31,371 nt of DNA. Origin: a virus. The notes under the pieces are model-generated. The model saw nothing but the letters and a program-made list of their open reading frames with translations. It had not been told where the DNA came from and ran no database searches. Within the stretch, counting starts at the first letter, position 1. The number at the start of each line of letters is the position of its first letter. Shown piece by piece: positions 4,690 through 30,168 of the stretch. The stretch lies in the IMG/VR virus record IMGVR_UViG_3300036943_000185, one strand, 5' to 3'. A program made the position numbers and the translations under genes.

Positions 4690-4845
4690 ATGGGAAGAAG
4701 CACGTTATTTAAGTACAATGTACATGAAGAAAACGTTAATAGGAAACGTTATGAAATGCTTAAACAAGCGGATGAACAACAGTGTTCGAGACTGTCTGAA
4801 CAACGACAGTCCTTAATGGAACTTCAACATAACTTCTAGAAGTGA
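4690..4845 (+). CDS. Small hypothetical protein ending TAG-AAG-TGA
   Basis: MGRSTLFKY...LQHNF then TAG (4837-4839), AAG, TGA; a backup stop lies two codons after the TAG. Confidence 0.5.
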
Positions 4846-6628: not shown

Positions 6629-6886
6629 ATGGCAACAGAAATTAGAGTAGGTATGGGTAACGAGAGAGAATTTGTAAACATGGATGAACTCAAAGAAGAA
6701 CTTGACAGAGTTGATGTAACATATGGCGATGTCATCTATGCAGCATTTGATGTAACTGCTGATTCAGTCAATACAAATCATGGTGTAAAGAATACATCTG
6801 ATATTGTATCTGATGAAACAGTAGCGGTGATGGTATCAGCACCTAAATCTGGTGGTGGTATGTCCACAAATGTTCACATGGTATAA
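6629..6886 (+). CDS. Ubiquitin-like (beta-grasp) protein precursor with G75-G76-G77 and a C-terminal extension
   Basis: 85 aa; beta-beta-alpha-beta pattern; ends ...SDETVAVMVSAPKSGG-GMSTNVHMV; strong AAAGGAG RBS; lies directly upstream of the E2, JAB and E1 genes. Confidence 0.7.
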   Translation: MATEIRVGMGNEREFVNMDELKEELDRVDVTYGDVIYAAFDVTADSVNTNHGVKNTSDIVSDETVAVMVSAPKSGGGMSTNVHMV

Positions 6887-6889
6887 ATA

Positions 6890-6924
6890 AAATGTGGGTA
6901 TAATTACCCACATTTAATATTTTT
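6890..6924 (+). terminator. Perfect 11-bp hairpin plus T-tract between the Ubl and E2 genes
   Basis: AAATGTGGGTA-TAAT-TACCCACATTT followed by AATATTTTT. Confidence 0.6.
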
Positions 6925-6940
6925 AAATGGAGATGATTAA

Positions 6941-7846
6941 ATGAAATTGGTAATTGATACGTTATGCACATATCATTTTGAAGATGATGATGGCAATGTC
7001 ATCGACAAAAAACAAATGCAAATGAACATACCCGAAAAGGATTTCAAACGTGAAGGACATGGTTCACTTGAAATTGAAATTAAAGTAGATTTCTATGAAT
7101 TATGTGATGAATTACAAATGCTTGATTTCGTGAATAGTGTTGATTATAATTTAGAGGATAAATGTTTTGAAATATATTGTACTGGAATTGAAGATGTACA
7201 TGAAGAACATGATGCATATGATTCAGATTGTAATATCAATATTGTTCCATATAAGGTATGCTTATTTGATGGTGGGCAATTATTAGTATTACCAACTGAT
7301 GGATTAAATTGTGGGTTTCATAGTGTACATCCAAACATAAGTAGTGATGGTGATATATGTTGGGGTGGTTCGTTTGGTATCATTGATGATTACGTAGAAA
7401 GCGGTGATATAATTATGTTTATGTTATCGTTACGTGATTTCATGAGCAAATGGTCAGCAGAAAATCCATTTTATAATCCAGTAAGTGTAAATCCATGTAG
7501 TCACTGTACACATGATGGATGCTTTGAGTTGTTATGTTGGTGCAGAGATTGTGCTGATTTCGATAGTTTCACATGTGTTGAGTGTAATCGTAGAGCAACT
7601 GTTGATATACCTTGGGCTAAATCAGAGATACATGATGTAGAAGAACGCTATGAAGGGCAATTGGATGATATACTTAATGACTTCAATTGCACAGATGGAG
7701 TAATTTGCCATGATACATACAACAAAACCATCGTGTTTGATGCAACGATTATGAACATAGTTGATTGGTTAGTAAACATAAATAAAAATGAAGTTGAATT
7801 ACATGAAGATGTACGTAATTTGATGGAAACACTTGAATTAATATAA
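6941..7846 (+). CDS. E2/UBC-like conjugating enzyme with C-terminal 8-Cys domain
   Basis: HPNISSDGDICWG matches the UBC HPN(I/V)xxxGxIC motif (Cys140); Cys at 186, 189, 194, 199, 201, 204, 212 and 215. Confidence 0.8.
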   Translation: MKLVIDTLCTYHFEDDDGNVIDKKQMQMNIPEKDFKREGHGSLEIEIKVDFYELCDELQMLDFVNSVDYNLEDKCFEIYCTGIEDVHEEHDAYDSDCNINIVPYKVCLFDGGQLLVLPTDGLNCGFHSVHPNISSDGDICWGGSFGIIDDYVESGDIIMFMLSLRDFMSKWSAENPFYNPVSVNPCSHCTHDGCFELLCWCRDCADFDSFTCVECNRRATVDIPWAKSEIHDVEERYEGQLDDILNDFNCTDGVICHDTYNKTIVFDATIMNIVDWLVNINKNEVELHEDVRNLMETLELI

Positions 7847-8629
7847 ATGGAGATGAATAAAATGGAAGTAGGAATATATATACCAAGAGATGTATGGACA
7901 GATATATGGACAATGATTAGTGTATGTAAACTTGAAGTAGGTGCACTAATGAGTTGTAGCATTGATAAAGATAATGGTATGATTACCGTAGATGAAATAT
8001 TTATACCATCACAGGAAGTAACTGGTGGTACATGTGATTTCGATAAGAACCAAGATGAAGGACTGTATGGTACAGATGATATATTAACGGAAGCGTTGAT
8101 GAGAGATGTTCATGTACCAATAAATGGTTGGGTACATAGCCATGTTAATATGAATACAAACTTTAGTTCAATCGATGATGACAACATTGAGAAATGGTTG
8201 GATTACAATAATGATTATTACGTTAGTATATGCGTAAATAAAAAGAAAGAAATTACTGGTAGAGTTGATATGCTGGTAGACACACCATTCACGTCTGAAC
8301 CTGAACATGTAACGATAGATGATGTAAATATCATGGTTGAAGAATGGTACAGTCCAAAAGTTATGGATTGGTTAAATACAGAAGGTGTGATACGTGAGAA
8401 GAAGTTTACTTACAAAAAGAAAGGTAAAAGTAAAGTTACAACTGTAACGTATAACAACGTTGAGTTGACATCAAGTAACAAACGTGAAGTACTTGAATGG
8501 GATGGTGTACAAGCACAATCAATGACAGATAAACAAATTGATGCATATTGGGATAAGCATAATTATAGTGAAGAAGATTACGATGAATATATTGAAAGTT
8601 TCGTTGAAATGTATTCACAGTTCAGGTGA
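7847..8629 (+). CDS. JAB/JAMM (MPN+) metalloprotease
   Basis: N-terminal Glu (KLEVGAL) and an exact HxHx7Sx2D motif, HSHVNMNTNFSSID (H97, H99, S107, D110). Confidence 0.9.
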   Translation: MEMNKMEVGIYIPRDVWTDIWTMISVCKLEVGALMSCSIDKDNGMITVDEIFIPSQEVTGGTCDFDKNQDEGLYGTDDILTEALMRDVHVPINGWVHSHVNMNTNFSSIDDDNIEKWLDYNNDYYVSICVNKKKEITGRVDMLVDTPFTSEPEHVTIDDVNIMVEEWYSPKVMDWLNTEGVIREKKFTYKKKGKSKVTTVTYNNVELTSSNKREVLEWDGVQAQSMTDKQIDAYWDKHNYSEEDYDEYIESFVEMYSQFR

Positions 8630-9210
8630 TTACAATGGATGATGTAATGGAACAATTCTTTCAATACCAGATAAGAGATGCTAAGAGTTATGCTAAAGCA
8701 TCTGCATTCACACATTCCGGTAGCAAATATACACCATGTGAACTGTTCAGTCCATGTATACACACCGATTGTTTAAATGGACTACAAACATATGGTTTTG
8801 ACATTGATACAAGATTGAAAGTGATATTTATTGGGTATAAAAATAATCTATCAACAGAGAATGGGTACATGGATATTGATTCTGATTACTTTAACCAATA
8901 TCCATTTAAATCAATTAATAGAAATTCGTTTAAAATGGGTGATATTATTGGTAATCCATTGATAAAATTCACATACAATAACTGTATTGATTTTATGGTT
9001 AAGACTGGTTCATCTATATTTGAATTCGATGTGTATCACTCATTTGATGTGAGTAAAGTATTCAATAGTATTTACAACAACAGAACAAAGGTAACACTTG
9101 ATGTAATGAAAGAATTATGTTACAGAATGACAGATTTTGTAGTGTTGAGTAACATACTTGAGGATAAGATTACAGGTGCATATAACATACTTGATAACAT
9201 GGAGGATTAA
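8626..9210 (+). CDS. Hypothetical protein within the Ubl cassette
   Basis: 194 aa; overlaps the JAB stop (GTGA); alternative ATG at 8635. Confidence 0.7.
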   Translation: MITMDDVMEQFFQYQIRDAKSYAKASAFTHSGSKYTPCELFSPCIHTDCLNGLQTYGFDIDTRLKVIFIGYKNNLSTENGYMDIDSDYFNQYPFKSINRNSFKMGDIIGNPLIKFTYNNCIDFMVKTGSSIFEFDVYHSFDVSKVFNSIYNNRTKVTLDVMKELCYRMTDFVVLSNILEDKITGAYNILDNMED

Positions 9211-9524
9211 TGATGGTAGTTGAAATAAACAGTGTTGATATAGATATGTCGTATTCAAATAATGATATGGCTGAGTTTCAGAATAACTACTTAGGCAAAC
9301 GATGTATAGGTAAGATAGGTGGTAACCCATTCAGAACAGGTGAATTCAATAAACTTGTTGAAATAGAACCAACAGAGATGACATCTGATGGTAAGTTTGT
9401 TAAAGCACGAATAAATGATTGTTTGCCAACATGGTTGAATTATTATGGTACAAATAAGGGTGGATTACACACTATCTTTGGAGACCATGTTGGTCTGTTT
9501 CATATAATTGAAGAAATAAAATGA
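9210..9524 (+). CDS. Hypothetical protein within the Ubl cassette
   Basis: 104 aa; TAATG overlap with the upstream gene. Confidence 0.7.
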   Translation: MMVVEINSVDIDMSYSNNDMAEFQNNYLGKRCIGKIGGNPFRTGEFNKLVEIEPTEMTSDGKFVKARINDCLPTWLNYYGTNKGGLHTIFGDHVGLFHIIEEIK

Positions 9525-9533
9525 AGTGATAAC

Positions 9534-10211
9534 ATGACAAACATAGAATATACACGACAAATGGAATGGTTTAATCCAGATAAGTATAGTGATACGAATG
9601 TTGCAGTAGTTGGTTGTGGTGGCATAGGTTCATTTTTGGTACTATACCTTGCACAAATGGGTATTAAGAATATCACGGTATATGATGATGATAAAGTTGA
9701 AGCACATAACCTACCTAACCAGAACTTTGATTTGAGACATATTGGTATGTTTAAGGTATGTGCTATGCAAGAAATTGTGAGAGAACGTACTGGTATCAAA
9801 ATCAATGCAGTTAATAAACGTGTAGGTAAGGATACAAAGTTTGATTGTGATGTATTGATGTTAGGTACAGATACCATTAGCAGTAGGGAGATGTGTCTAC
9901 GTAATGCTAAAAGTAGTGATGTGAAATGTATTATCGATGGTAGATTAGGTGGTCAATACTACCAAGTGTTTACGGTTGATATGCATAATTCTGATGAAGT
10001 ATACAAGTATCAACAATACTTCTTCCCACAATCTGAACAGGAACAACCAAGATGTACAGCAAAAGCAATTATATATATTGCATTGGATATTACATCTGAT
10101 ATGATTAGACATATGAGAGCATGGTTAATGGATTATGAATATCCTATTGTATATGAAGTTAACAGAGAACATAATGAGATAACAGCAGATGGAAACGTAT
10201 TTGTGTATTGA
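9534..10211 (+). CDS. E1/ThiF-MoeB family ubiquitin-like activating adenylyltransferase
   Basis: VAVVGCGGIGS, YDDDKVEAHNLPNQ, FKV, LGTD and IDGRLGG motifs; candidate thioester Cys174 (QPRCTAK); no CxxC Zn pairs. Confidence 0.92.
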   Translation: MTNIEYTRQMEWFNPDKYSDTNVAVVGCGGIGSFLVLYLAQMGIKNITVYDDDKVEAHNLPNQNFDLRHIGMFKVCAMQEIVRERTGIKINAVNKRVGKDTKFDCDVLMLGTDTISSREMCLRNAKSSDVKCIIDGRLGGQYYQVFTVDMHNSDEVYKYQQYFFPQSEQEQPRCTAKAIIYIALDITSDMIRHMRAWLMDYEYPIVYEVNREHNEITADGNVFVY

Positions 10212-12911: not shown

Positions 12912-12994
12912 ATGGGTGTAGCAAAGTGGTCAAATGCGTATGGCTTAAGACCATATCTGGTAGCAGTTCATGGGTTCGACTCCCATCACCCATA
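12912..12994 (+). tRNA. trnL: tRNA-Leu(UAA), no encoded CCA, no intron
   Basis: Acceptor ATGGGTG/CACCCAT + discriminator A; D arm GCA..TGG..TGC; anticodon arm TATGG-CTTAAGA-CCATA; variable arm CTG-GTAG-CAG; T arm ATGGG-TTCGACT-CCCAT. Confidence 0.93.
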
Positions 12995-14077: not shown

Positions 14078-15571
14078 ATGACACGTGATTTTTGTGAAGA
14101 CATCATTGAGTATGGTAGGCATAATATCATAGGAAATGAGCAACAATTCCTTGCATTTGTATTATCAATGCTAACGTGTTTTGCACCTTCACCCAAAGAA
14201 TATGTATCTACATTTTTAGTAGGTGAAAGTAGTGGTGGTAAAACACATTTGCAACGTACTGGTTTATATTTGCTACCCAATGAATGTATATTTAATATCA
14301 CAAGTAGTTCAGATAAAGCACCAATATACTCAGAAGACTTACGTAACGATGACAAAATCAAGTTTATACAGTTTGCAGAATATCAGAAACTACCACCAGC
14401 AGTTATTGAGTTTCTAAAATCACTGTCTGGTGATGATGATGATTTTGTATATGAAGTAACTAATGCTTCAAAAGGTAACACTATGAGGATTGAACATAAG
14501 AAAAGACCTTATAGTGCTACGTATGCACAGGTTGAGATTGACCATGAACTTGAAAGTCGTGTATTTGTTATACCAATAATGGATAACTATACAATCAATC
14601 GTTGTGTAGCAGCAATCAAATTTGGTGCAGATGAAGTAGAGTATTTGGGTGTTAAATATAAGTTAGTACCAGATGAAGAACTTGAAGCACGTATTATGGA
14701 TAACATACATTCACTAATGCAATCTGAAATGGAAGTAACCATACCATTTGCAACGGCATTAGTTGATATTGTTAACCATAGCAAGTCAGTGAGTAAACGA
14801 CATAGCAGTTTAATATCATCGTTGATTAAGAGTTCATGTCGTGCTAACTGGATTAATCGTAAATCAGTCGATGGTAAACTCGTAGCAAATGCACAGGATG
14901 TAACAAACGTATTGATTATGTTTGATTTGTTACGTGCTACAATGATGTCGATAGATATTATTGACTTGACTATATTTAAAAAGTTAAGTAAAGAACCTAA
15001 CCAGAACGCTGAAAGTTTAATTAGATTCTTACAGAACATGGGTTTAGCAGAACTTACAAAAACTGAACTCAGTCGTAGGTTAGACAAACTGTACAACGAA
15101 AACTACATTAAATGTAAAGGTGGTGAATCAGGTAATCTATACAGTGGTAACGATAAGAAACAGATACTAAAGGTACGTGTAGATTGGGATGAGATTTACA
15201 AACATGACAGTAGTCCAGTTAGAAACGTAATTACTGGTAAAGAATACAGTAACATCATTGAGTTTGGTAAGGATGCTGAAGTAGAATATGAGATACGTGA
15301 GTGTACAGAGGATGTGTCTGAACATAAACAGGTCAATATTAAAGAAGCGACTATACGTGAACTTGTGATTGATTGTATAAGTAATTCTGATAACGGTGGT
15401 TTAAATACCAGTGAGATTGCTTATAGTATCTTAAACAATCCAGATAATCAGGATAAACTTGATGGTATAGATTATTACGGTATATCATTTGATATTATAC
15501 CAGCGATGGTAGATGATGGTATAATTTATTATGATGACCAGAACAAAGTATATAAATTATTTGCAAAATGA
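14078..15571 (+). CDS. AAA+ ATPase, MCM-like replicative helicase candidate with C-terminal wHTH-like segments
   Basis: Walker A GESSGGKT, variant Walker B FIQFAE, Arg-finger-like HELESR; adjacent to primase. Confidence 0.65.
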   Translation: MTRDFCEDIIEYGRHNIIGNEQQFLAFVLSMLTCFAPSPKEYVSTFLVGESSGGKTHLQRTGLYLLPNECIFNITSSSDKAPIYSEDLRNDDKIKFIQFAEYQKLPPAVIEFLKSLSGDDDDFVYEVTNASKGNTMRIEHKKRPYSATYAQVEIDHELESRVFVIPIMDNYTINRCVAAIKFGADEVEYLGVKYKLVPDEELEARIMDNIHSLMQSEMEVTIPFATALVDIVNHSKSVSKRHSSLISSLIKSSCRANWINRKSVDGKLVANAQDVTNVLIMFDLLRATMMSIDIIDLTIFKKLSKEPNQNAESLIRFLQNMGLAELTKTELSRRLDKLYNENYIKCKGGESGNLYSGNDKKQILKVRVDWDEIYKHDSSPVRNVITGKEYSNIIEFGKDAEVEYEIRECTEDVSEHKQVNIKEATIRELVIDCISNSDNGGLNTSEIAYSILNNPDNQDKLDGIDYYGISFDIIPAMVDDGIIYYDDQNKVYKLFAK

Positions 15572-15943: not shown

Positions 15944-16390
15944 ATGGGATACGGTGAGTCTGATGTAGTTGATGCGTTGAATAATTATTTTGATAGTAAT
16001 TGTATCAATGCATTATCATATCGACATAAACAGGGTAGGTTTACTGACCAATGGTGTGACATTAATGTTGATAGTAGTGATAACCGATGGTATCTTGCAT
16101 TAGAGATAAAAAGCAAACGTGGTAAACGTGCTTTGAATTTCAACAACGATTTCACTACCAACAAAGATGGTGTACACCAGTTACAGAGATTAATTGATTA
16201 TTCTATGTTAACAGGTAGAAATCCAATGATAATAGTCTTTTGTAGAATGGGTAGAGGTAGACCAAACCAGATTTATACATTCGATGCATTGGACTTATGG
16301 ACACTCTGGAATAGCGGTAGTAAATCACTTAAGGCTAAAGAATACGATGAATATAACATAAGTTATTTTGATGAGGTGGAGTTCAAGTGA
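15944..16390 (+). CDS. PD-(D/E)XK nuclease, Holliday junction resolvase (Hjc/RecU-like), paralog 1
   Basis: GESDV...CDINVD...LALEIKSK...HQLQRL. Confidence 0.75.
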   Translation: MGYGESDVVDALNNYFDSNCINALSYRHKQGRFTDQWCDINVDSSDNRWYLALEIKSKRGKRALNFNNDFTTNKDGVHQLQRLIDYSMLTGRNPMIIVFCRMGRGRPNQIYTFDALDLWTLWNSGSKSLKAKEYDEYNISYFDEVEFK

Positions 16391-16394
16391 TAGT

Positions 16395-17393
16395 ATGGCA
16401 TTGATGTTTGAGTTATCTGATGATTGTATTAAGTTATCAGATAACAAACTAAACATGTTATACAAACATTTTGTTAATCGTTATGATGACTATGCTATAC
16501 AACAGGACAACGGTTCGTATCGTAGGTCAGACAGACCGTTGGATACTTACACACTACTTCAACACTTATCAGGTGAAATCACGATAGGTTCATACCAAAT
16601 AAGTTTAGACGGTAAGGTTAAGTGGATATGTCTTGATATAGACCATCATAACGATGAACAAAATGAGACAGATGTAGAGTTAGATACGTTAACAATCATT
16701 ACAAAACTTGAAGCGTTAGGTATAGATTACATATGTGAATCGTCTGGTTCAAGTGTGTCTAAACATATCTGGATATTCATGGATAACGTTAACGTATCAG
16801 ATGCATACAGTTTCGGTAGGGAAATAATAGGTGATACAGAGTGTGAAGTGTATCCTAAACAGAAGAAGTTAAGTGATGTTAAACCATACGGTAATTTAGT
16901 TAAGTTACCATTTGGTAAGAATAAGAAGAACGATAACTGGTCACATATCGTAACAAGTTCAGGTGATTGTATACATAAACTTAAGTTAGACAGATACATA
17001 CCGAGTGTGTACAAACGTAAGTGTAAGAGTGTCACAAAGCACTCTTCGAACTGTCTGAACATAGGTTGTTCTAATGGTGTACTACCGCTTACAATGAGAC
17101 CATGTTTAAAGAAAGTTTAGACTGGTGATATTAGTGCAGTCGGTACAGGTGGACATAACTTAAGATGTGCATTAGTACCTGAACTACGTGATTGTTGTGG
17201 TATGACTGAATCAGACATATTAAGTGTGTTTATGAATCAAATGGATTTTGATATTGAAGCAACCAGACGCAATGTTAAATCATTGATTCATTATAATAGG
17301 TATAGTTGTAGTAGAATTTTAGCAGAGTCTAAAAATATAGTAGAAGATATTTGTAAAGGATGTGTATTGAATGAAGACAAGAATCGATATTGA
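16395..17393 (+). CDS. Fused AEP primase (PriS-like) + PriL Fe-S domain, with in-frame TAG at 17118-17120
   Basis: AEP motifs CLDIDH, SSGSSVSKHIW, EVYPKQ and GNLVKLP. After RPCLKKV-TAG the frame stays open for 90 codons (TGDISAVGTGGHNLR...DFDIEATR...YSCSRI...ICKGC) and joins track ORF 17202-17393. Confidence 0.8.
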
Positions 17394-19148: not shown

Positions 19149-19421
19149 GTGATATATATGAGAGTGTATATAGACAATACACAAGACGATGAAGACAATA
19201 AGTGGATAGGTAAAACAATTCGTATCGATGAAAGATTTTGTAAACATAACAATGTACCACATGTAAACAAAGTAATGTTGATAGAAGAAATACGAGGTGC
19301 AATAATATTAAGGTTTGTTGATGCAATGGGTATATGTCCACCAGTAGATGTTACGATACCTAACGATAGGTTTGAAATATTGAAGACGGATAATATGAGT
19401 CTGGATAGATATGAACAGTAA
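19149..19421 (+). CDS. Hypothetical protein
   Basis: 90 aa, AGGTGA RBS. Confidence 0.6.
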   Translation: MIYMRVYIDNTQDDEDNKWIGKTIRIDERFCKHNNVPHVNKVMLIEEIRGAIILRFVDAMGICPPVDVTIPNDRFEILKTDNMSLDRYEQ

Positions 19422-19995
19422 AACCAAACGTATTCAGAGACGTAGGTTGAACAGACAGGAAAAGAAAAATAATATTAGTAATGTTGATGTAGGTGAACAG
19501 TTTGAATGGTTCATGACAGAATATTTTAATGAGTATATGGATACATATAGTTTGAATGGACTTGCTTACATGTATCCAATACATCCTAACTATACACAAA
19601 AGATTGATGTGTTGATTGATAATTTTGATTCGATGTTTATAGGTATTGAATGTAAGAGTGTATATGAAGATGGACACCCACTTCATAATAAATGCAATCA
19701 CTTTAGAAACACAAGATTTTATTTCAGTAAGTTGTTTCGCATCAATAAAAATGGTGAATCACAATTACATAGACAACATCAATTTTTGGTATGCACAGAT
19801 AGACGTGGTTTGATTGCATTTGAGTTTAGATGTATGGATGAAGTGTTTTTAGTACCACATCAAATAGTTTATGATAAGTGGAAATCAGGCAACAAGTTTA
19901 TTACATCGTAGGACATAATAACAAATGCTTATCAAATTGGAAGTAAAGGCAGTTTAGTTAAGTTTATATCGAATAAATGTGAGGTAACAAAATGA
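19411..19995 (+). CDS. PD-(D/E)XK nuclease (Hjc/RecU-like), paralog 2, with in-frame TAG at 19909-19911
   Basis: QFEWF...IDVLID...IGIECKSV...SQLHRQ. After the TAG, 27 sense codons lead to a TGA that overlaps the next ATG (ATGA at 19992). Confidence 0.7.
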
Positions 19996-20262: not shown

Positions 20263-20441
20263 AAGGACAGAAGTATTATGCAAAGGGCATAGTTGAACAT
20301 GTAGTAGACCCATTGAACGAAGATATGTTAGTAGATGCATTCATCGATGATTATGAAAGAGATGATGTTATTGCTAATATATGTAAACATTTACCAATAG
20401 GAACGAAAGTAAAGATAACAATAGAGGTATTAGATGATTGA
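20259..20441 (+). CDS. Hypothetical protein
   Basis: 60-aa ORF overlapping both neighbours. Confidence 0.6.
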   Translation: MKGQKYYAKGIVEHVVDPLNEDMLVDAFIDDYERDDVIANICKHLPIGTKVKITIEVLDD

Positions 20442-21066
20442 GATAAAAAGACCATCGATACCGTCTGCTTACGAAGCGTTATGGAAACGTGTGTGGCATT
20501 ACGGTAAGAAGGACATAGACGAACGTGGTGACGCTGTAAGAGTGCTACACTACGTATGGGTCGAGATAACCTCAGATGACCTCACATATCCGTCTGTGTG
20601 CTATGTAAATGAAGCAATAGGTGATTCGTTCGTAGACGGATTAACCGATTCAGACCTGTCACGGTGTGTTGGTTATGAGTTTGATTATGGTTATGGCGAT
20701 AGGTTACGTCAGAAATATGCACTTGCAACAGTTGTTGAGATGTTAAGAGAGAACCATAAGACCAGACGTGGGTGCATACCAATAACAGAATCAAACGATT
20801 TACGTGCATCACACATGTATAACATTGAGATACCGTGTGCTACACAGGTAGAGTTCGAGGTTGTCGATGATAAGTTAGATATGGTATTACATATGCGTAG
20901 TAATGATGTACTTAACGCATTTCCTTCGGATGTCTACGGATTCAGACATTTACAAATGATGGTATGTGATTACACTGGTATACCAATTGGTAACTACTAT
21001 CAGTATATAAAGAATGCACATATAATAGAACATGCAGCACAAGATTGGATAGAGGAACATTTATGA
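20434..21066 (+). CDS. thyA: Thymidylate synthase / dCMP hydroxymethylase family protein (archaeal ThyA-like)
   Basis: YGYGDRL, TRRG, IPC (catalytic Cys135), MRSNDVLNAFPSD and NAHI motifs. Confidence 0.85.
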   Translation: MIEIKRPSIPSAYEALWKRVWHYGKKDIDERGDAVRVLHYVWVEITSDDLTYPSVCYVNEAIGDSFVDGLTDSDLSRCVGYEFDYGYGDRLRQKYALATVVEMLRENHKTRRGCIPITESNDLRASHMYNIEIPCATQVEFEVVDDKLDMVLHMRSNDVLNAFPSDVYGFRHLQMMVCDYTGIPIGNYYQYIKNAHIIEHAAQDWIEEHL

Positions 21067-22988: not shown

Positions 22989-25253
22989 ATGAAAGCAGAA
23001 GATTATTTTGATAGTCAGTTAGGTATAGATATTTGGAATAACAAATACCGACAGAACAATGAATCATTCGATGAATGGTTAGATAGAGTTAGCGGTGGTA
23101 ACGAAAGTGTACGTATGCTAATCGAACAAAAGAAGTTCATGTTCGGTGGTAGAATACTTGCTAACAGAGGTATCACTGATAGAAATGTAAGTTTAAGCAA
23201 TTGTTATTATATGGATATACCAGATGATTCAATTGATGCAATATATGAAACATCACGTAAGTTAGCAAAAACATTTAGTTGGGGTGGTGGAGTAGGTATT
23301 GACATGAGTGTACTTGCACCAAGAGGGGCTAAAATAAATAATGCTGCTAATGAAACAACTGGTGCTGTATCGTTTATGAGTACATTTAATGAAGTAGCAA
23401 AAACTATTGGTGCTGAAGGTAGACGTGCAGCACTGTTGATGTCGTTGAAATCTGAACATCCAGATTTAGAAGAATTTATTACATGTAAATCAGAAGATGG
23501 TAAAATAAGTGGTGCTAACATTAGCATACAAGCATCTGATGATTTCATGTCAAGTATATATAATGAAGGTTCATATGAATTATCATATACCAGACACAAC
23601 GGTGATACAACATCCAAAGTAATTGATAGTACAAGAGTATTTAGAACATTTTCTGAAAACAATTGGAATTGGTCAGAACCGGGTATGCAATTCATTGACA
23701 GAATGCGTAGTTGGGGATTACTTAGTGAATATAATGATTACATAATCAATGGAACAAATGCTTGTAATGAACTCACTTTACCTGACGGTGGTGCATGTTT
23801 ATTAGGTAGTATTAATTTAGATGAACTTGATGTAAATGGATTATTAAGTGCTGTTCCGCAATGGAATGAGTTAGAGGAAACAGTTGATATAGCAGTTCGT
23901 GGAATGAACGAAGTGTTAATTGAAGCACTTGGGAGACATCCACTTGAATACCAACGTGATGTAGTTAATGATTGGAGACAGATAGGACTGGGTGTATTTG
24001 GATATGCAAGTCTATTAATAAAACTCGGATTGAAGTATGGCAGTCAGGAAGCATTGTTATTCACTGAACATATGTTCAGAAGAATACTGAAACAAGCAGT
24101 TCTAACAAGTGCTGACGTAGCCAGAATAAATGGTTCATTCCCAAAGTTTGACTTAGACAAAACACTTCAATCCAAATTTGTACAAGAGAATTTTGATGAT
24201 GAAATGGTTGATGCTATAACTAAGTATGGTTTAGCAAATGGTTCACTGTTATCAATTGCACCAACTGGTAGCATAAGTACAATGATGGGTCAAACATCGG
24301 GTGGAACTGAACCATACTTTGCATTGAGTTACAATAGAAGAACAGAAAGTCTACACGGTGAAAGAATTGTATATAAGGTTGATTCACCAATTGTGAAGTG
24401 GTACAAAGATAACCATGATGTACCCAAAGAAAACGATGAGTTACCACATTATTTTGTAACCACTATGGATGTTTCGGTTCATGATAGGATAAGAACGCAA
24501 TCAGTAATACAGCAATACATTGATACATCTATAAGCAGTACAATAAACTTACCAAACAGTGCAACAATTGAAGATGTAGAGGAAGTTTATATAAATGGTT
24601 GGATATATGGTCTTAAAGGCATTACTGTTCATAGACAAGGTAATAAACGTGAAGGAATACTTACAGTTGGTGATGCATCTGAAGATAAAGATATAGGTAT
24701 GGAATTAAAACGGGGTGATTGGGAACCAGAGCCAACAGATTTAGCAAGTACTGATAGAGATATTTATACTGGATGTGGTCAAATCAAAATGTTTATCAGA
24801 TATTCGAGAACAAATAACAAAATATTTGATTTTTGGATAAAACGTTCTGGTAAAGGCGGATGTGAACGATCTTTGGATGATATTGCAGTAGCAATGTCTG
24901 GAATGCTTAGACTTGGAGGGAGTATTAACAATATAAAAAAGGCATTTAAAGGTATAGGTGTATGTAACTCATTTAGCAATGCTCGTAAATCTGGACAAAT
25001 TGTCAGCAAAGGAAATAATTGTGGTGACTCTATGTTACGCAAATTACTCGAATTTAAAGAAGATGTTGATAATGATAATCTGGATATTAATGGACATCCT
25101 TTAGAGGACATTGACGGTACTCCATTGAATAAAACACAAAAACAACCACAACCCATAAAAAAAGGCACATTGTGCCCTGAATGTGGTGGTAATATAGCAT
25201 ACGCTGGTGGATGTATAGAATGTCGAACATGTGGTTATAGCAAATGTGATTAA
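22989..25253 (+). CDS. nrdJ: Class II (B12-dependent) ribonucleotide reductase with TSCPD-like and Zn-ribbon C-terminus
   Basis: SLSNC, GGGVG, TNACNE..L...GACLLGSIN, IAPTGSIS, SSTINLP and KGITVHR motifs; C-terminal CPECGG...GCIECRTCGYSKC. Confidence 0.93.
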   Translation: MKAEDYFDSQLGIDIWNNKYRQNNESFDEWLDRVSGGNESVRMLIEQKKFMFGGRILANRGITDRNVSLSNCYYMDIPDDSIDAIYETSRKLAKTFSWGGGVGIDMSVLAPRGAKINNAANETTGAVSFMSTFNEVAKTIGAEGRRAALLMSLKSEHPDLEEFITCKSEDGKISGANISIQASDDFMSSIYNEGSYELSYTRHNGDTTSKVIDSTRVFRTFSENNWNWSEPGMQFIDRMRSWGLLSEYNDYIINGTNACNELTLPDGGACLLGSINLDELDVNGLLSAVPQWNELEETVDIAVRGMNEVLIEALGRHPLEYQRDVVNDWRQIGLGVFGYASLLIKLGLKYGSQEALLFTEHMFRRILKQAVLTSADVARINGSFPKFDLDKTLQSKFVQENFDDEMVDAITKYGLANGSLLSIAPTGSISTMMGQTSGGTEPYFALSYNRRTESLHGERIVYKVDSPIVKWYKDNHDVPKENDELPHYFVTTMDVSVHDRIRTQSVIQQYIDTSISSTINLPNSATIEDVEEVYINGWIYGLKGITVHRQGNKREGILTVGDASEDKDIGMELKRGDWEPEPTDLASTDRDIYTGCGQIKMFIRYSRTNNKIFDFWIKRSGKGGCERSLDDIAVAMSGMLRLGGSINNIKKAFKGIGVCNSFSNARKSGQIVSKGNNCGDSMLRKLLEFKEDVDNDNLDINGHPLEDIDGTPLNKTQKQPQPIKKGTLCPECGGNIAYAGGCIECRTCGYSKCD

Positions 25254-25464
25254 AATGATGAATGGTGATAAATACGAACATACCGGTAGAATGACTGTTG
25301 GACAGTTAAAGAAAGTTCTGGGTGAATATAATGATAATGCGAAAGTAATAATCAGTGCATGTAATTCAAATATGTTAGGAAACGATAGATTTCCAGAACA
25401 TGTCATTGGTCATACTGAATCAGATAGAAAGGGTTATTTAGTATTGGTGACTACAATAAGGTGA
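25231..25464 (+). CDS. Hypothetical protein
   Basis: MTVGQLKKVLGEYNDNAKVII pattern common in viral small proteins; the true start is probably downstream of 25231. Confidence 0.6.
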   Translation: MVIANVIKMMNGDKYEHTGRMTVGQLKKVLGEYNDNAKVIISACNSNMLGNDRFPEHVIGHTESDRKGYLVLVTTIR

Positions 25465-25468
25465 TAAA

Positions 25469-25870
25469 ATGGTAACAAAAACTGAAGTATTGGATAGGCT
25501 CAATCATGTAACGGTTACAGACGATGGATTAGATTCTGATGATTTGGATGTGTTAGCATCCTTCATCAATAATTTATATCTGAATCAAAATACTGATAGT
25601 AGTACATGGGATATTGCAAGAGTATGTGTATCAATGCTTAACTTCCTTATGGTTAAGAACAAACGTTACGGTAACTCAGCGATAGAACCATTGAATGTGT
25701 TTAGTAAACTTGACGCAAACGAGCAGATTAATAATCGTATGGATGATAAGTTAATGAGAATTAAGAATAGCAGTATTGAGCGTAAAAATGATTACGTTGA
25801 CCTGTCTGGATATTTGCTGCTCAAATGTATAGCAAACGATTGGTTAGAATTTGATGACTTATTGGACTGA
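25469..25870 (+). CDS. Nucleotide modification-associated domain 1 (DUF1599/Nmad1-like, all-alpha NTP pyrophosphatase-like)
   Basis: KNKRYGNS...FS...INNRMDDKLMRI...NDYVDLSGYLLL. Confidence 0.65.
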   Translation: MVTKTEVLDRLNHVTVTDDGLDSDDLDVLASFINNLYLNQNTDSSTWDIARVCVSMLNFLMVKNKRYGNSAIEPLNVFSKLDANEQINNRMDDKLMRIKNSSIERKNDYVDLSGYLLLKCIANDWLEFDDLLD

Positions 25871-25876
25871 TTAAAC

Positions 25877-26032
25877 ATGTTTGAAAATAGTTGGATGATG
25901 TATACATTGGTTGATGATGAGTTTGTTGTTACATCGATAACTAAAAACATAGTGTTTAAACAAATATAGACACATGTCTTGATAAATAAATATTATGATG
26001 ATAGATTTGGTGAAGTAAGATGTCCATATTAA
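25877..26032 (+). CDS. Small protein with in-frame TAG at codon 31 (25967-25969)
   Basis: MFENSWMMYTL...VFKQI-TAG-THVLINKYYDDRFGEVRCPY-TAA; the extended form overlaps the next start (26020) like its neighbours. Confidence 0.5.
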
Positions 26033-26238
26033 GTATAGTTATGTGGATAGTAGTGTTTGGTAACATAATGGGTGCGTTAATGGTTGCTAAACACGATAGT
26101 ATGAAAGCCAATCAAATATGGTTTGTGACTAATCCAGTATTGATTGGTTACAATATTTATTTAGGTGCAATAGAACAAGCCGTAATGTTTTTAATATATT
26201 GGATACTATGTATACTTGGAATAAAGAGGATGATATAA
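26020..26238 (+). CDS. Small membrane protein, PnuC-like half-transporter pattern
   Basis: GALMVAK...IWFVTN...IGYNIYLG...LIYWILCILG. Confidence 0.5.
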   Translation: MSILSIVMWIVVFGNIMGALMVAKHDSMKANQIWFVTNPVLIGYNIYLGAIEQAVMFLIYWILCILGIKRMI

Positions 26239-26417
26239 TGAAAGATATGTATGTATTTAGATGTAATGAATGTGGTAAGACAATTGAATATTTTGGTGAT
26301 AACACTGGTGCTAAGAAAATGTGGCAAAGTCTAACTAAAAATGGATGTGAAGATTGTGATTGTCAACGCTTTTTAGTTAAAAAGCCAATATACGATTCAT
26401 CAGGTGATAGTAGATGA
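26199..26417 (+). CDS. Zn-ribbon protein
   Basis: FRCNECG...GCEDCDC; the true start is probably the internal ATG after GAGGA. Confidence 0.6.
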   Translation: MDTMYTWNKEDDIMKDMYVFRCNECGKTIEYFGDNTGAKKMWQSLTKNGCEDCDCQRFLVKKPIYDSSGDSR

Positions 26418-26617
26418 GTGAAAAGAAAACACGTAGAGTTGCTTGTGCTATATGTGGTGAACCAGTGGATGTACCGATAGAACTGTTTGAACATACTTTA
26501 AAAAGTGGTAGTAGACGTAAAGGTAAACGACATAAGTATGATAAGTTTTATTGTGAAACACATTTTGAAATGGGTATGAATAGAGATTTGGAGAATGAGA
26601 ATAATGAAGATAAATGA
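26414..26617 (+). CDS. Basic Zn-finger protein
   Basis: CAICGEP...FYCETH with an RRKGKRHK stretch. Confidence 0.65.
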   Translation: MSEKKTRRVACAICGEPVDVPIELFEHTLKSGSRRKGKRHKYDKFYCETHFEMGMNRDLENENNEDK

Positions 26618-27038
26618 AGATATGTTAGACGATGGTACTTTATATATAAAGAAAGAAGCAGATAAGATACCTTATATAAAACAGGGTGGTTATTTATGTA
26701 ACGTAACTGGTACTATATGTGCTATCGAAAGTAAAGATAAAATACTTGATATGTTTAATAACATTAGTTCAGTGAATAAACTGGATACTGATAAAATAAC
26801 TGAAAACAGTACATTCTTTGATTGGTTAAATAATCGGTATCCTGAACTTGTTGAACTTGAATATGAACTTGCATGTTTATATAACGTATCTGCTGATTCG
26901 ATAGCAAGCGATAGTGATATTGATAACTGGTATCTTGTAAGTGCTGATGATAAAGATTGGGAATTGTTATTAGCACATTACAATGGTAAAGTTAACTCAT
27001 GGTTTTTGATAGCACCTAATGTAGAGGATGATGAGTAA
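26595..27038 (+). CDS. Hypothetical protein
   Basis: 147-aa ORF. Confidence 0.7.
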   Translation: MRIMKINEDMLDDGTLYIKKEADKIPYIKQGGYLCNVTGTICAIESKDKILDMFNNISSVNKLDTDKITENSTFFDWLNNRYPELVELEYELACLYNVSADSIASDSDIDNWYLVSADDKDWELLLAHYNGKVNSWFLIAPNVEDDE

Positions 27039-29592: not shown

Positions 29593-30168
29593 TCAGAAAT
29601 CTAATTTACTGTAAACTTTCCAGTTGTTAGGAAACTTAAATATACTATCGTTTTGTGGTTCTATTATATACACATCTTTATTTAAATCAACGAATATGTT
29701 GACAGCATGACCGCTTCCTTTTTCTGTTATAACGTATACTTCACCTGTACATAATTGACTATCCCATTTATCCAAATCACCTTTAAGTATCGTAGCAAAC
29801 GTGTTACAGTCATGCCATGTTGGTACATATTTACGTTTATTAACTGGATTTTTATACAACCATTGCTGTAAATGTTCTTTATTGACTAACTTAAACTTAC
29901 TGTCAGGAATTGTTGTTACACTCTTAACATTTTCACCAAGTTGTTCAACAAGTATTTGCTTAAGTTTGTCATTAGAAATTATGACATCTTCTTCTTGCTT
30001 TGGATAAGTTAACCATCTTAACAGTTCGTCATATTCTTCTATTACTTCGTTGTATCTATCAGTGATGTCACGATATTCTATGACACGTTTCTTGTAATGT
30101 TCTAAATCCTCAAATACTGTCGGATATAATATATATGCTAATTGCTTCTGGTATTCTTCTAAACTCAT
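29593..30168 (-). CDS. Papain/transglutaminase-like cysteine peptidase (agglutinin C-terminal-like domain) with N-terminal coiled coil
   Basis: HDCNTFA (Cys121), GHAVNIF (His154) and IIEPQND (Glu170); last gene of the minus-strand operon. Confidence 0.7.
   Translation of the reverse strand: MSLEEYQKQLAYILYPTVFEDLEHYKKRVIEYRDITDRYNEVIEEYDELLRWLTYPKQEEDVIISNDKLKQILVEQLGENVKSVTTIPDSKFKLVNKEHLQQWLYKNPVNKRKYVPTWHDCNTFATILKGDLDKWDSQLCTGEVYVITEKGSGHAVNIFVDLNKDVYIIEPQNDSIFKFPNNWKVYSKLDF

Follow-up and report, generated by a model that had tools for sequence, protein, structure and literature searches.

The window analysed here, a stretch of 31,371 nucleotides from IMG/VR virus record IMGVR_UViG_3300036943_000185, comes from a tailed virus, of whose genome it covers a part. 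It has a TerS-like gene at one end, also encodes a methyltransferase, and on its plus strand carries a primase gene that is interrupted by an in-frame amber codon (TAG; Table 1). The ATG at which this gene starts agrees with the N-termini of its homologues. The TAG lies five residues past Cys237, inside a helix and not at a domain boundary. An initial annotation, made from the letters alone, had placed the Cys of an RPC motif (17103) before the TAG at 17118, and the GHNLR and DFD motifs together with the Cys residues of YSC (17307) and CKGC (17352/17361) after it; the coordinates proved exact, and both motifs do lie downstream of the TAG. Standard gene calling splits this gene, as it does a nuclease-like gene further along the window, and so did every public gene call that we retrieved.

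The primase gene, TAG included, was 100% identical in four further assemblies (L006-L009), and the TAG was also kept in three variants from other metagenome projects (L108-L110), which share 98% amino-acid identity with it. Because the same TAG recurs in both sets, it is not an assembly error. Downstream of the TAG, the primase frame aligns to uninterrupted homologues and stays free of stops for 90 codons, a run with a probability of 2.6e-4 given the base composition of the strand. Close variants differ uniquely from one another after the TAG at four synonymous sites and one non-synonymous site (P = 0.007), and their non-synonymous differences fall mostly within the linker that joins the two domains of the protein. 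Between the window and the sister lineage described below, 45 of 87 residues after the TAG are identical, with a ratio of non-synonymous to synonymous substitution rates (dN/dS) of ~0.43. Judged by these sequence comparisons, the post-TAG frame is under purifying selection at both deep and recent time scales, and the region must therefore be translated in the primase frame. The gene thus combines an in-frame UAG with a conserved and selected downstream frame, as a gene for a pyrrolysine-containing protein should.

Table 1. Features of the viral window, numbered from its first nucleotide (aa, amino acids; pLDDT, per-residue confidence of the structural model)
Feature	Position	Strand	Remarks
Likely ribosome-binding site of the primase gene, GAGGTGGAG	16373-16381	+	
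Primase gene	16395..17393	+	332 codons; in-frame TAG is codon 242; TGA stop at 17391-17393
Prim-Pol (AEP) catalytic domain	16395..16994	+	residues ~1-200
Linker, variable, probably disordered	17010..17084	+	residues 206-230; pLDDT <50
C-terminal helical four-Cys domain, PriX/PriL-CTD-like	17085..17369	+	residues ~231-325; pLDDT 80
Cys237, first putative metal ligand	17103..17105	+	upstream of the TAG; conserved in 37/37 representatives
In-frame TAG, codon 242	17118-17120	+	in the first helix (residues 236-243) of the C-terminal domain
Cys305 (17307), Cys320 (17352) and Cys323 (17361)	17307..17363	+	putative ligands downstream of the TAG; conserved in 36-37/37
Nuclease-like gene, paralogue of 15944..16390	19411..19995	+	in-frame TAG at 19909-19911
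497-aa Walker-A protein, likely helicase/ATPase, same replication module	14078..15571	+	GESSGGKT in translation; syntenic in all relatives
15 protospacer sites	1539-30120		e.g. 2133-2168, 6954-6990, 7987-8022, 15997-16031, 25434-25469, 30085-30120

The relatives of the primase place the TAG in an otherwise uninterrupted family. Eleven close full-length homologues (29-46% identity) have both domains and no interruption, with V, I, M, G, A or L at the TAG column, and when the residue at this site was compared across 37 representatives, as the initial annotation had proposed, it was L in 13, I in 8, V in 6 and M in 3. A profile search of 1.84 billion representatives returned 281 primase relatives at E <1e-30, so that the fusion of a Prim-Pol domain with a four-Cys PriX/PriL-CTD-like domain (CTD, C-terminal domain) constitutes a large family; no member of it has been solved with the four-Cys domain included. 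Among the best 150 of these 281 relatives, only P0002, which belongs to the window lineage, and P0013 end at profile position 241. The source of P0013 was a syntenic virus (L001-L005) whose primase, 47% identical to that of the window, has a TAG at the identical alignment column (6362-6364 in L001); the 87 codons beyond it are open, show 52% identity to the window and retain all of the invariant residues. Maximum-likelihood analysis groups the two TAG lineages as sisters (support 100/98) at a distance of 1.28 substitutions per site; the TAG therefore had a single origin, and the downstream domain has stayed intact since. Separate genes for the two halves, another arrangement that the initial annotation had considered, were not what the other relatives carry: each has one fused open reading frame (ORF).

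The N-terminal part of the protein is a Prim-Pol domain of the archaeo-eukaryotic primase (AEP) superfamily. It matched the Pfam hidden Markov model (HMM) PF22548 (E 4.5e-21, 76 bits against a cut-off of 27), as did 13 of 13 homologues, in agreement with membership of this family, and D81, D83, S117, G118, H124 and E151 are invariant among the homologues, so that the DxD, SGxGxH-type and third acidic catalytic motifs of AEP / Prim-Pol enzymes are present along with the fold. The closest solved relative is the CAPP protein of Marinitoga (PDB 7nqd/7p9j), found with a profile E value of 3e-33 and, by Foldseek, with an E value of 3e-11 and a target-normalised TM-score of 0.66-0.71; the model of the catalytic domain has a pLDDT >87 over most of its length.

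In the C-terminal domain, the GH..R and Q.D motifs are nearly invariant among the 37 stand-alone representatives. An exhaustive structural search with this domain gave as best match PriX of the Sulfolobus PriSLX complex (5of3_C; Z 8.1 over 94 of 107 residues); the second match scored 2.4 Z lower. Further down the ranking were helical domains of photolyases (Z 5-5.7) and cryptochromes, including the iron-sulfur (Fe-S) photolyase PhrB, eukaryotic PriL Fe-S domains (Z 4.0 and 3.3) and the pRN1 helix bundle (Z 3.8-3.9). These matches form a coherent set of primase accessory folds, but for a helical domain a Z of 8.1, being below 13, is moderate and not decisive. Foldseek with the C-terminal domain alone gave no significant match (E 1.0), its sequence retrieved nothing meaningful from the PDB, and the phage database yielded distant AEP matches only, none of which spans the C-terminal domain. 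An HMM search with the readthrough protein, suggested by the initial annotation, produced a PF04104 match that does cross the TAG (residues 226-330) but falls below the gathering score (18.8 versus 22.4 bits), and only 1 of 13 family members matches PF04104. The domain is thus probably a metal-binding, PriX/PriL-CTD-like one rather than an established PriL Fe-S domain. The PriS-PriL fusion originally proposed can be kept as regards a 332-aa chain that joins a catalytic to a four-Cys accessory part, but the catalytic part is a Prim-Pol/CAPP-type AEP and not a classical PriS. The further proposal that the TAG splits the accessory domain holds: a four-Cys domain of probable PriL-CTD/PriX-like fold is interrupted between Cys237 and Cys305/320/323.

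When 177 Methanosarcinaceae genomes were searched at the DNA level with the window, short perfect matches clustered on one contig of a single genome (G154). This 290-kb contig holds a CRISPR array of 117 repeats (GTTATAATCAGACCTTAGAGGGATTGAAAT) and 116 spacers, ~16 of which match the window, 7 of them perfectly over the full spacer length. Since the matching sites are spread along the entire window, the whole of it is viral, and this host lineage has encountered it repeatedly. On contig C7 of G154, one cluster encodes tRNA-Pyl(CUA), PylS (367 bits), PylB (521), PylC (442) and PylD (352), and an MttB homologue of the same genome carries one in-frame TAG. The pyrrolysine-decoding host that the initial annotation had envisaged was in this way traced to a Methanosarcinaceae lineage, through spacers on the one hand and tRNA-Pyl, PylS, PylB, PylC and PylD on the other; the cell has pylT, pylS and pylBCD, as required for a pyrrolysine-containing protein, and its link to the virus is made by spacers and not by a cultured pair. 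A protein search of 284 Methanosarcinales genomes with the 497-aa neighbour of the primase found only a related viral contig in the metagenome-assembled genome (MAG) G001. This MAG, which holds the nearest relative in a named genome, belongs to the Methanosarcinaceae and also has PylS; its contig looks wholly viral, and the binning is therefore weak evidence for a host.

Stop-codon usage was examined on both sides. TAG terminates 4 of 163 long ORFs in a 200-kb sample of G154 (42.5% GC) and 2 of 44 plus-strand ORFs in the window, both of which continue into conserved sequence. The rarity of TAG stops in the window has a probability of 2e-4 when compared with base composition and of 6e-3 when compared with the 19% found in spurious minus-strand ORFs; among 149 genes called in related viruses, TAG is the stop codon of 8. 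Virus and host alike avoid ending genes in TAG.

One of the two TAG-ending ORFs of the window is the primase, and the other belongs to the nuclease-like gene. The ORF 19411..19911 ends in TAG, beyond which the frame is open for 27 further codons. The homologue P0171 (67% identity), which has no interruption, can be aligned with 19411..19995 over the full length, matches the 27 residues beyond the TAG and has Lys (AAG) at the TAG column; the alignment with the paralogue 15944..16390 likewise crosses the TAG, with Lys at that column. With this TAG backed by P0171, at least two genes of the virus therefore need UAG readthrough. When TAG was read as sense, only two plus-strand ORFs of at least 80 aa extended past a TAG stop, and the window shows no whole-genome reassignment of TAG of the phage type (code 15-like). 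Further TAGs occur in the frames of very short ORFs at 4837, 6267 and 25967, which brings the in-frame candidates to a total of up to five; the one at 4837 is followed by a single codon and then TGA, a tandem stop.

A hairpin is predicted at 17140-17182 (GGUAC..GGUGGACAU / AUGUGCA..GUACC), 22-62 nucleotides downstream of the primase TAG and over the codons for TG.GGH.LRCALVP, with a folding z of -1.5 to -2.3. It was rejected as a PYLIS-like element: a hairpin is also predicted at the corresponding place in L092, L094 and L010, TAG-bearing and TAG-less homologues share it equally, and it is not TAG-specific. It could be a coincidence of the coding sequence or a conserved RNA structure. In M. 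acetivorans, UAG decoding requires no insertion element (PMC13663744), and the occurrence of the hairpin in TAG-less homologues is consistent with this.

Considering the selected frame beyond the TAG together with the coding capacity of the host, we think it likely that the UAG of the viral primase is decoded as pyrrolysine in competition with termination, to give a two-domain primase in one chain. The host of the virus, as the spacers indicate, is a methanogen of the Methanosarcinaceae with the means to make both pyrrolysine and tRNA-Pyl(CUA), and UAG is ambiguous there. Where pyrrolysyl-tRNA reads the codon, the product would be a 332-aa primase with pyrrolysine at residue 242, in which the Prim-Pol domain is followed by a flexible linker and by a helical four-Cys, probably Fe-S-binding, accessory domain of the PriX/PriL-CTD type. 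Where a release factor reads it, a 241-aa protein would result, in which only a stub of the accessory domain follows the catalytic domain and the linker. Such decoding would require no special RNA signal, and none was seen. We infer that residue 242 is pyrrolysine, that both forms are produced and that it is the long one which functions as primase. There is a cellular parallel in M. acetivorans, where long and short forms have both been shown for the sensor kinase RdmS, a UAG-containing protein that is not a methyltransferase (PMC12626013).

Several observations weigh against decoding as pyrrolysine. That pyrrolysine, or indeed any residue, is inserted at position 242 is deduced from the genes and not from protein, and the homologues have aliphatic residues at the TAG site, where pyrrolysine would have no obvious chemical role. 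The Fe-S assignment of the accessory domain rests on the conservation of the Cys residues and on the moderate helical fold match (Z 8.1). The link to the host depends on the CRISPR spacers of a single representative genome, G154, and a spacer search of the 177 Methanosarcinaceae genomes gave no match for the sister lineage. The window is, moreover, only part of a viral genome, and a suppressor tRNA could be encoded elsewhere in it.

Taken alone, a premature stop would be read most simply as a dead gene or a sequencing artefact. This is scarcely credible here, given the identical TAG in at least eight assemblies of the window lineage and at least five of the sister lineage and a post-TAG frame that has stayed open, with purifying selection acting on it, ever since these lineages diverged. 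The calls of gene finders, which report an ORF of 63 aa starting at ATG 17202 in the window and, for the sister lineage, one of 75 aa with a GTG start, would accord with a split gene whose separate polypeptides assemble, as PriS does with PriL or PriX. Such an arrangement is very improbable: the TAG lies within a helix, and a split would put the invariant Cys237 on a different chain; the starts chosen by the gene finders are not the same in the two lineages, lack a ribosome-binding site and would remove all (in the window) or part of the invariant GGH..R motif; and every other relative is fused. Recoding of TAG to Gln by suppressor tRNAs is known from phages, and a near-cognate or virus-encoded suppressor tRNA might likewise insert a standard residue at the primase UAG. 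The partial coverage of the viral genome leaves room for such a tRNA, and ARAGORN calls a tRNA with a four-nucleotide anticodon in the relative L092. Readthrough of this kind is nevertheless improbable, since searches of the window and of ~110 kb of related viral DNA turned up no CUA-anticodon tRNA, since only two validated in-frame TAGs (up to five candidates) occur in the 31 kb, in replication rather than late genes, and since tRNA-Pyl is supplied by the host.

It is conceivable, although on balance unlikely, that the TAG is a selected switch, either because the balance between short and long primase, as determined by the charged tRNA-Pyl available in the host, gates viral replication or tunes it to the methylotrophic state of the host, or because the isoforms differ in their job (polymerase only versus primase). 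Over a divergence of 1.28 substitutions per site neither of the two lineages has lost the TAG, although a single-step change to TTG (Leu) would give a residue found at this site in other homologues, and at equally variable columns the two lineages share the codon in 6% and the residue in 21% of cases. It also parts Cys237 from the other three Cys residues, which would leave the short form without a foldable accessory domain, and UAG decoding in Methanosarcina does vary with growth condition (PMC12626013, PMC13663744). The retention of the TAG is, however, a single observation that is suggestive only against a chance baseline of 6-21%, and the presence of a TAG in a second, unrelated gene fits general UAG decoding better than a switch specific to the primase. 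Nor need the short form be inactive, because the Prim-Pol core of CAPP primes efficiently without its CTD in vitro (PMC10345425). There is no TAG-specific RNA element, the hairpin being shared with TAG-less homologues, and even the direction of the growth-substrate effect is disputed: readthrough was modelled as ~twofold higher on methanol in one study (PMC12626013), whereas more charged tRNA-Pyl and more efficient readthrough were inferred for trimethylamine in another (PMC13663744). A neutral origin of the TAG in a host that reads UAG well is a simpler explanation than a checkpoint. Neutral drift of pyrrolysine into non-essential sites has a precedent in Thg1 of M. acetivorans, which also speaks against a selected switch. 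The replication checkpoint tuned to pyrrolysine supply that the initial annotation had put forward is plausible at most; the second TAG-bearing gene and priming by the CAPP core weaken it.

If the viral UAG is read as pyrrolysine, as we favour, its closest parallels are cellular. Thg1 of Methanosarcina is, besides RdmS, another non-methyltransferase protein with pyrrolysine at an in-frame UAG. As in such proteins of Methanosarcina, long and short products would be expected as pyrrolysyl-tRNA competes with release factor, in a genome that strongly avoids TAG stops, and the primase resembles RdmS in having a single in-frame UAG inside a domain and no dedicated insertion element (PMC12626013). 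It differs from RdmS in being viral and a core replication gene, for which the pyrrolysine machinery would be wholly supplied by the host. The virus can also be compared with bacteriophages in which stop codons are recoded (TAG to Gln, TGA to Trp): in both, the standard code misreads genes, and expression would be tied to the decoding state of the cell. In recoded bacteriophages the recoded stops are numerous and fall chiefly in late genes, and these phages often encode a suppressor tRNA or release factor themselves, whereas the window virus has two validated sites, both in replication or recombination genes, with no suppressor tRNA seen, and would borrow its decoding from the expanded code of the host.

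With regard to its architecture, the primase resembles Marinitoga CAPP in carrying an accessory domain C-terminal to a Prim-Pol domain (~30% identity). CAPP, however, is bacterial and CRISPR-associated and has TPR and CTD modules, whereas the window primase comes from an archaeal virus and has a PriX/PriL-CTD-like bundle with four Cys. As in PriL-CTD, one Cys is N-terminal and three are C-terminal; the spacing, C-x67-C-x14-C-x2-C, differs from that of PriL, and PriX has no Fe-S cluster. Unlike PriX and PriL, the domain of the window primase is fused in cis to the catalytic domain.

Pyrrolysine decoding has so far been studied almost only in cellular genes. A literature search for pyrrolysine in viral or phage proteins, which did not cover a 2023 compendium of methanogen viruses, found none; the dependence of a viral replication gene on pyrrolysine decoding by the host thus appears to be new, incidental pyrrolysine in cellular proteins and stop recoding in phages being already known. 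Were the viral UAG so decoded, code expansion would shape virus genomes both in their stop-codon usage and in sense UAG codons. The codon would be a determinant of host range that can be read from sequence, with the virus expected to fail in pyrrolysine-free methanogens or pyl deletion mutants, and a natural reporter of UAG readthrough during infection. A stronger claim would be that selection keeps the UAG as a lock that ties replication to pyrrolysine-decoding hosts, and possibly to methylamine physiology, with a core enzyme of replication and the product of at least one other gene being full-length only under the expanded code. We regard this as doubtful; if true, these would be the first pyrrolysine proteins encoded by a virus, and a natural equivalent of the genetic firewall of synthetic biology.

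The remainder of the window and its relatives contain further genes. The 497-aa Walker-A protein received no firm family assignment. A ubiquitin-like conjugation cassette at 6629-10211 is syntenic in L006, L092, L094 and contig C12 of G001; its ThiF/E1 gene is firmly assigned (9534..10211, Pfam E 4.6e-27) and its JAB gene weakly (7847..8629, E 0.002). The class II ribonucleotide reductase, at 22989-25253 in the window, corresponds in G001:C12 to two blocks (23817-26876; L106/L107) ~870 bp apart, a gap which suggests an intein or other insertion that is not in the window. In L092, the tRNA with a four-base anticodon (ataa) called by ARAGORN at 8638-8712 adjoins tRNA-Lys and tRNA-Pro genes, and may be a miscall or a frameshift-type tRNA. 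A tRNA-Leu(UAA) is encoded at 12912-12994 of the window, and the sister lineage has one as well (L001, 319-404); genes of this virus, with 33% GC, use the codon UUA commonly, whereas the GC content of the host is 42.5%. Lastly, a thymidylate-synthase-like gene lies at 20434-21066 (Pfam E 8e-14).
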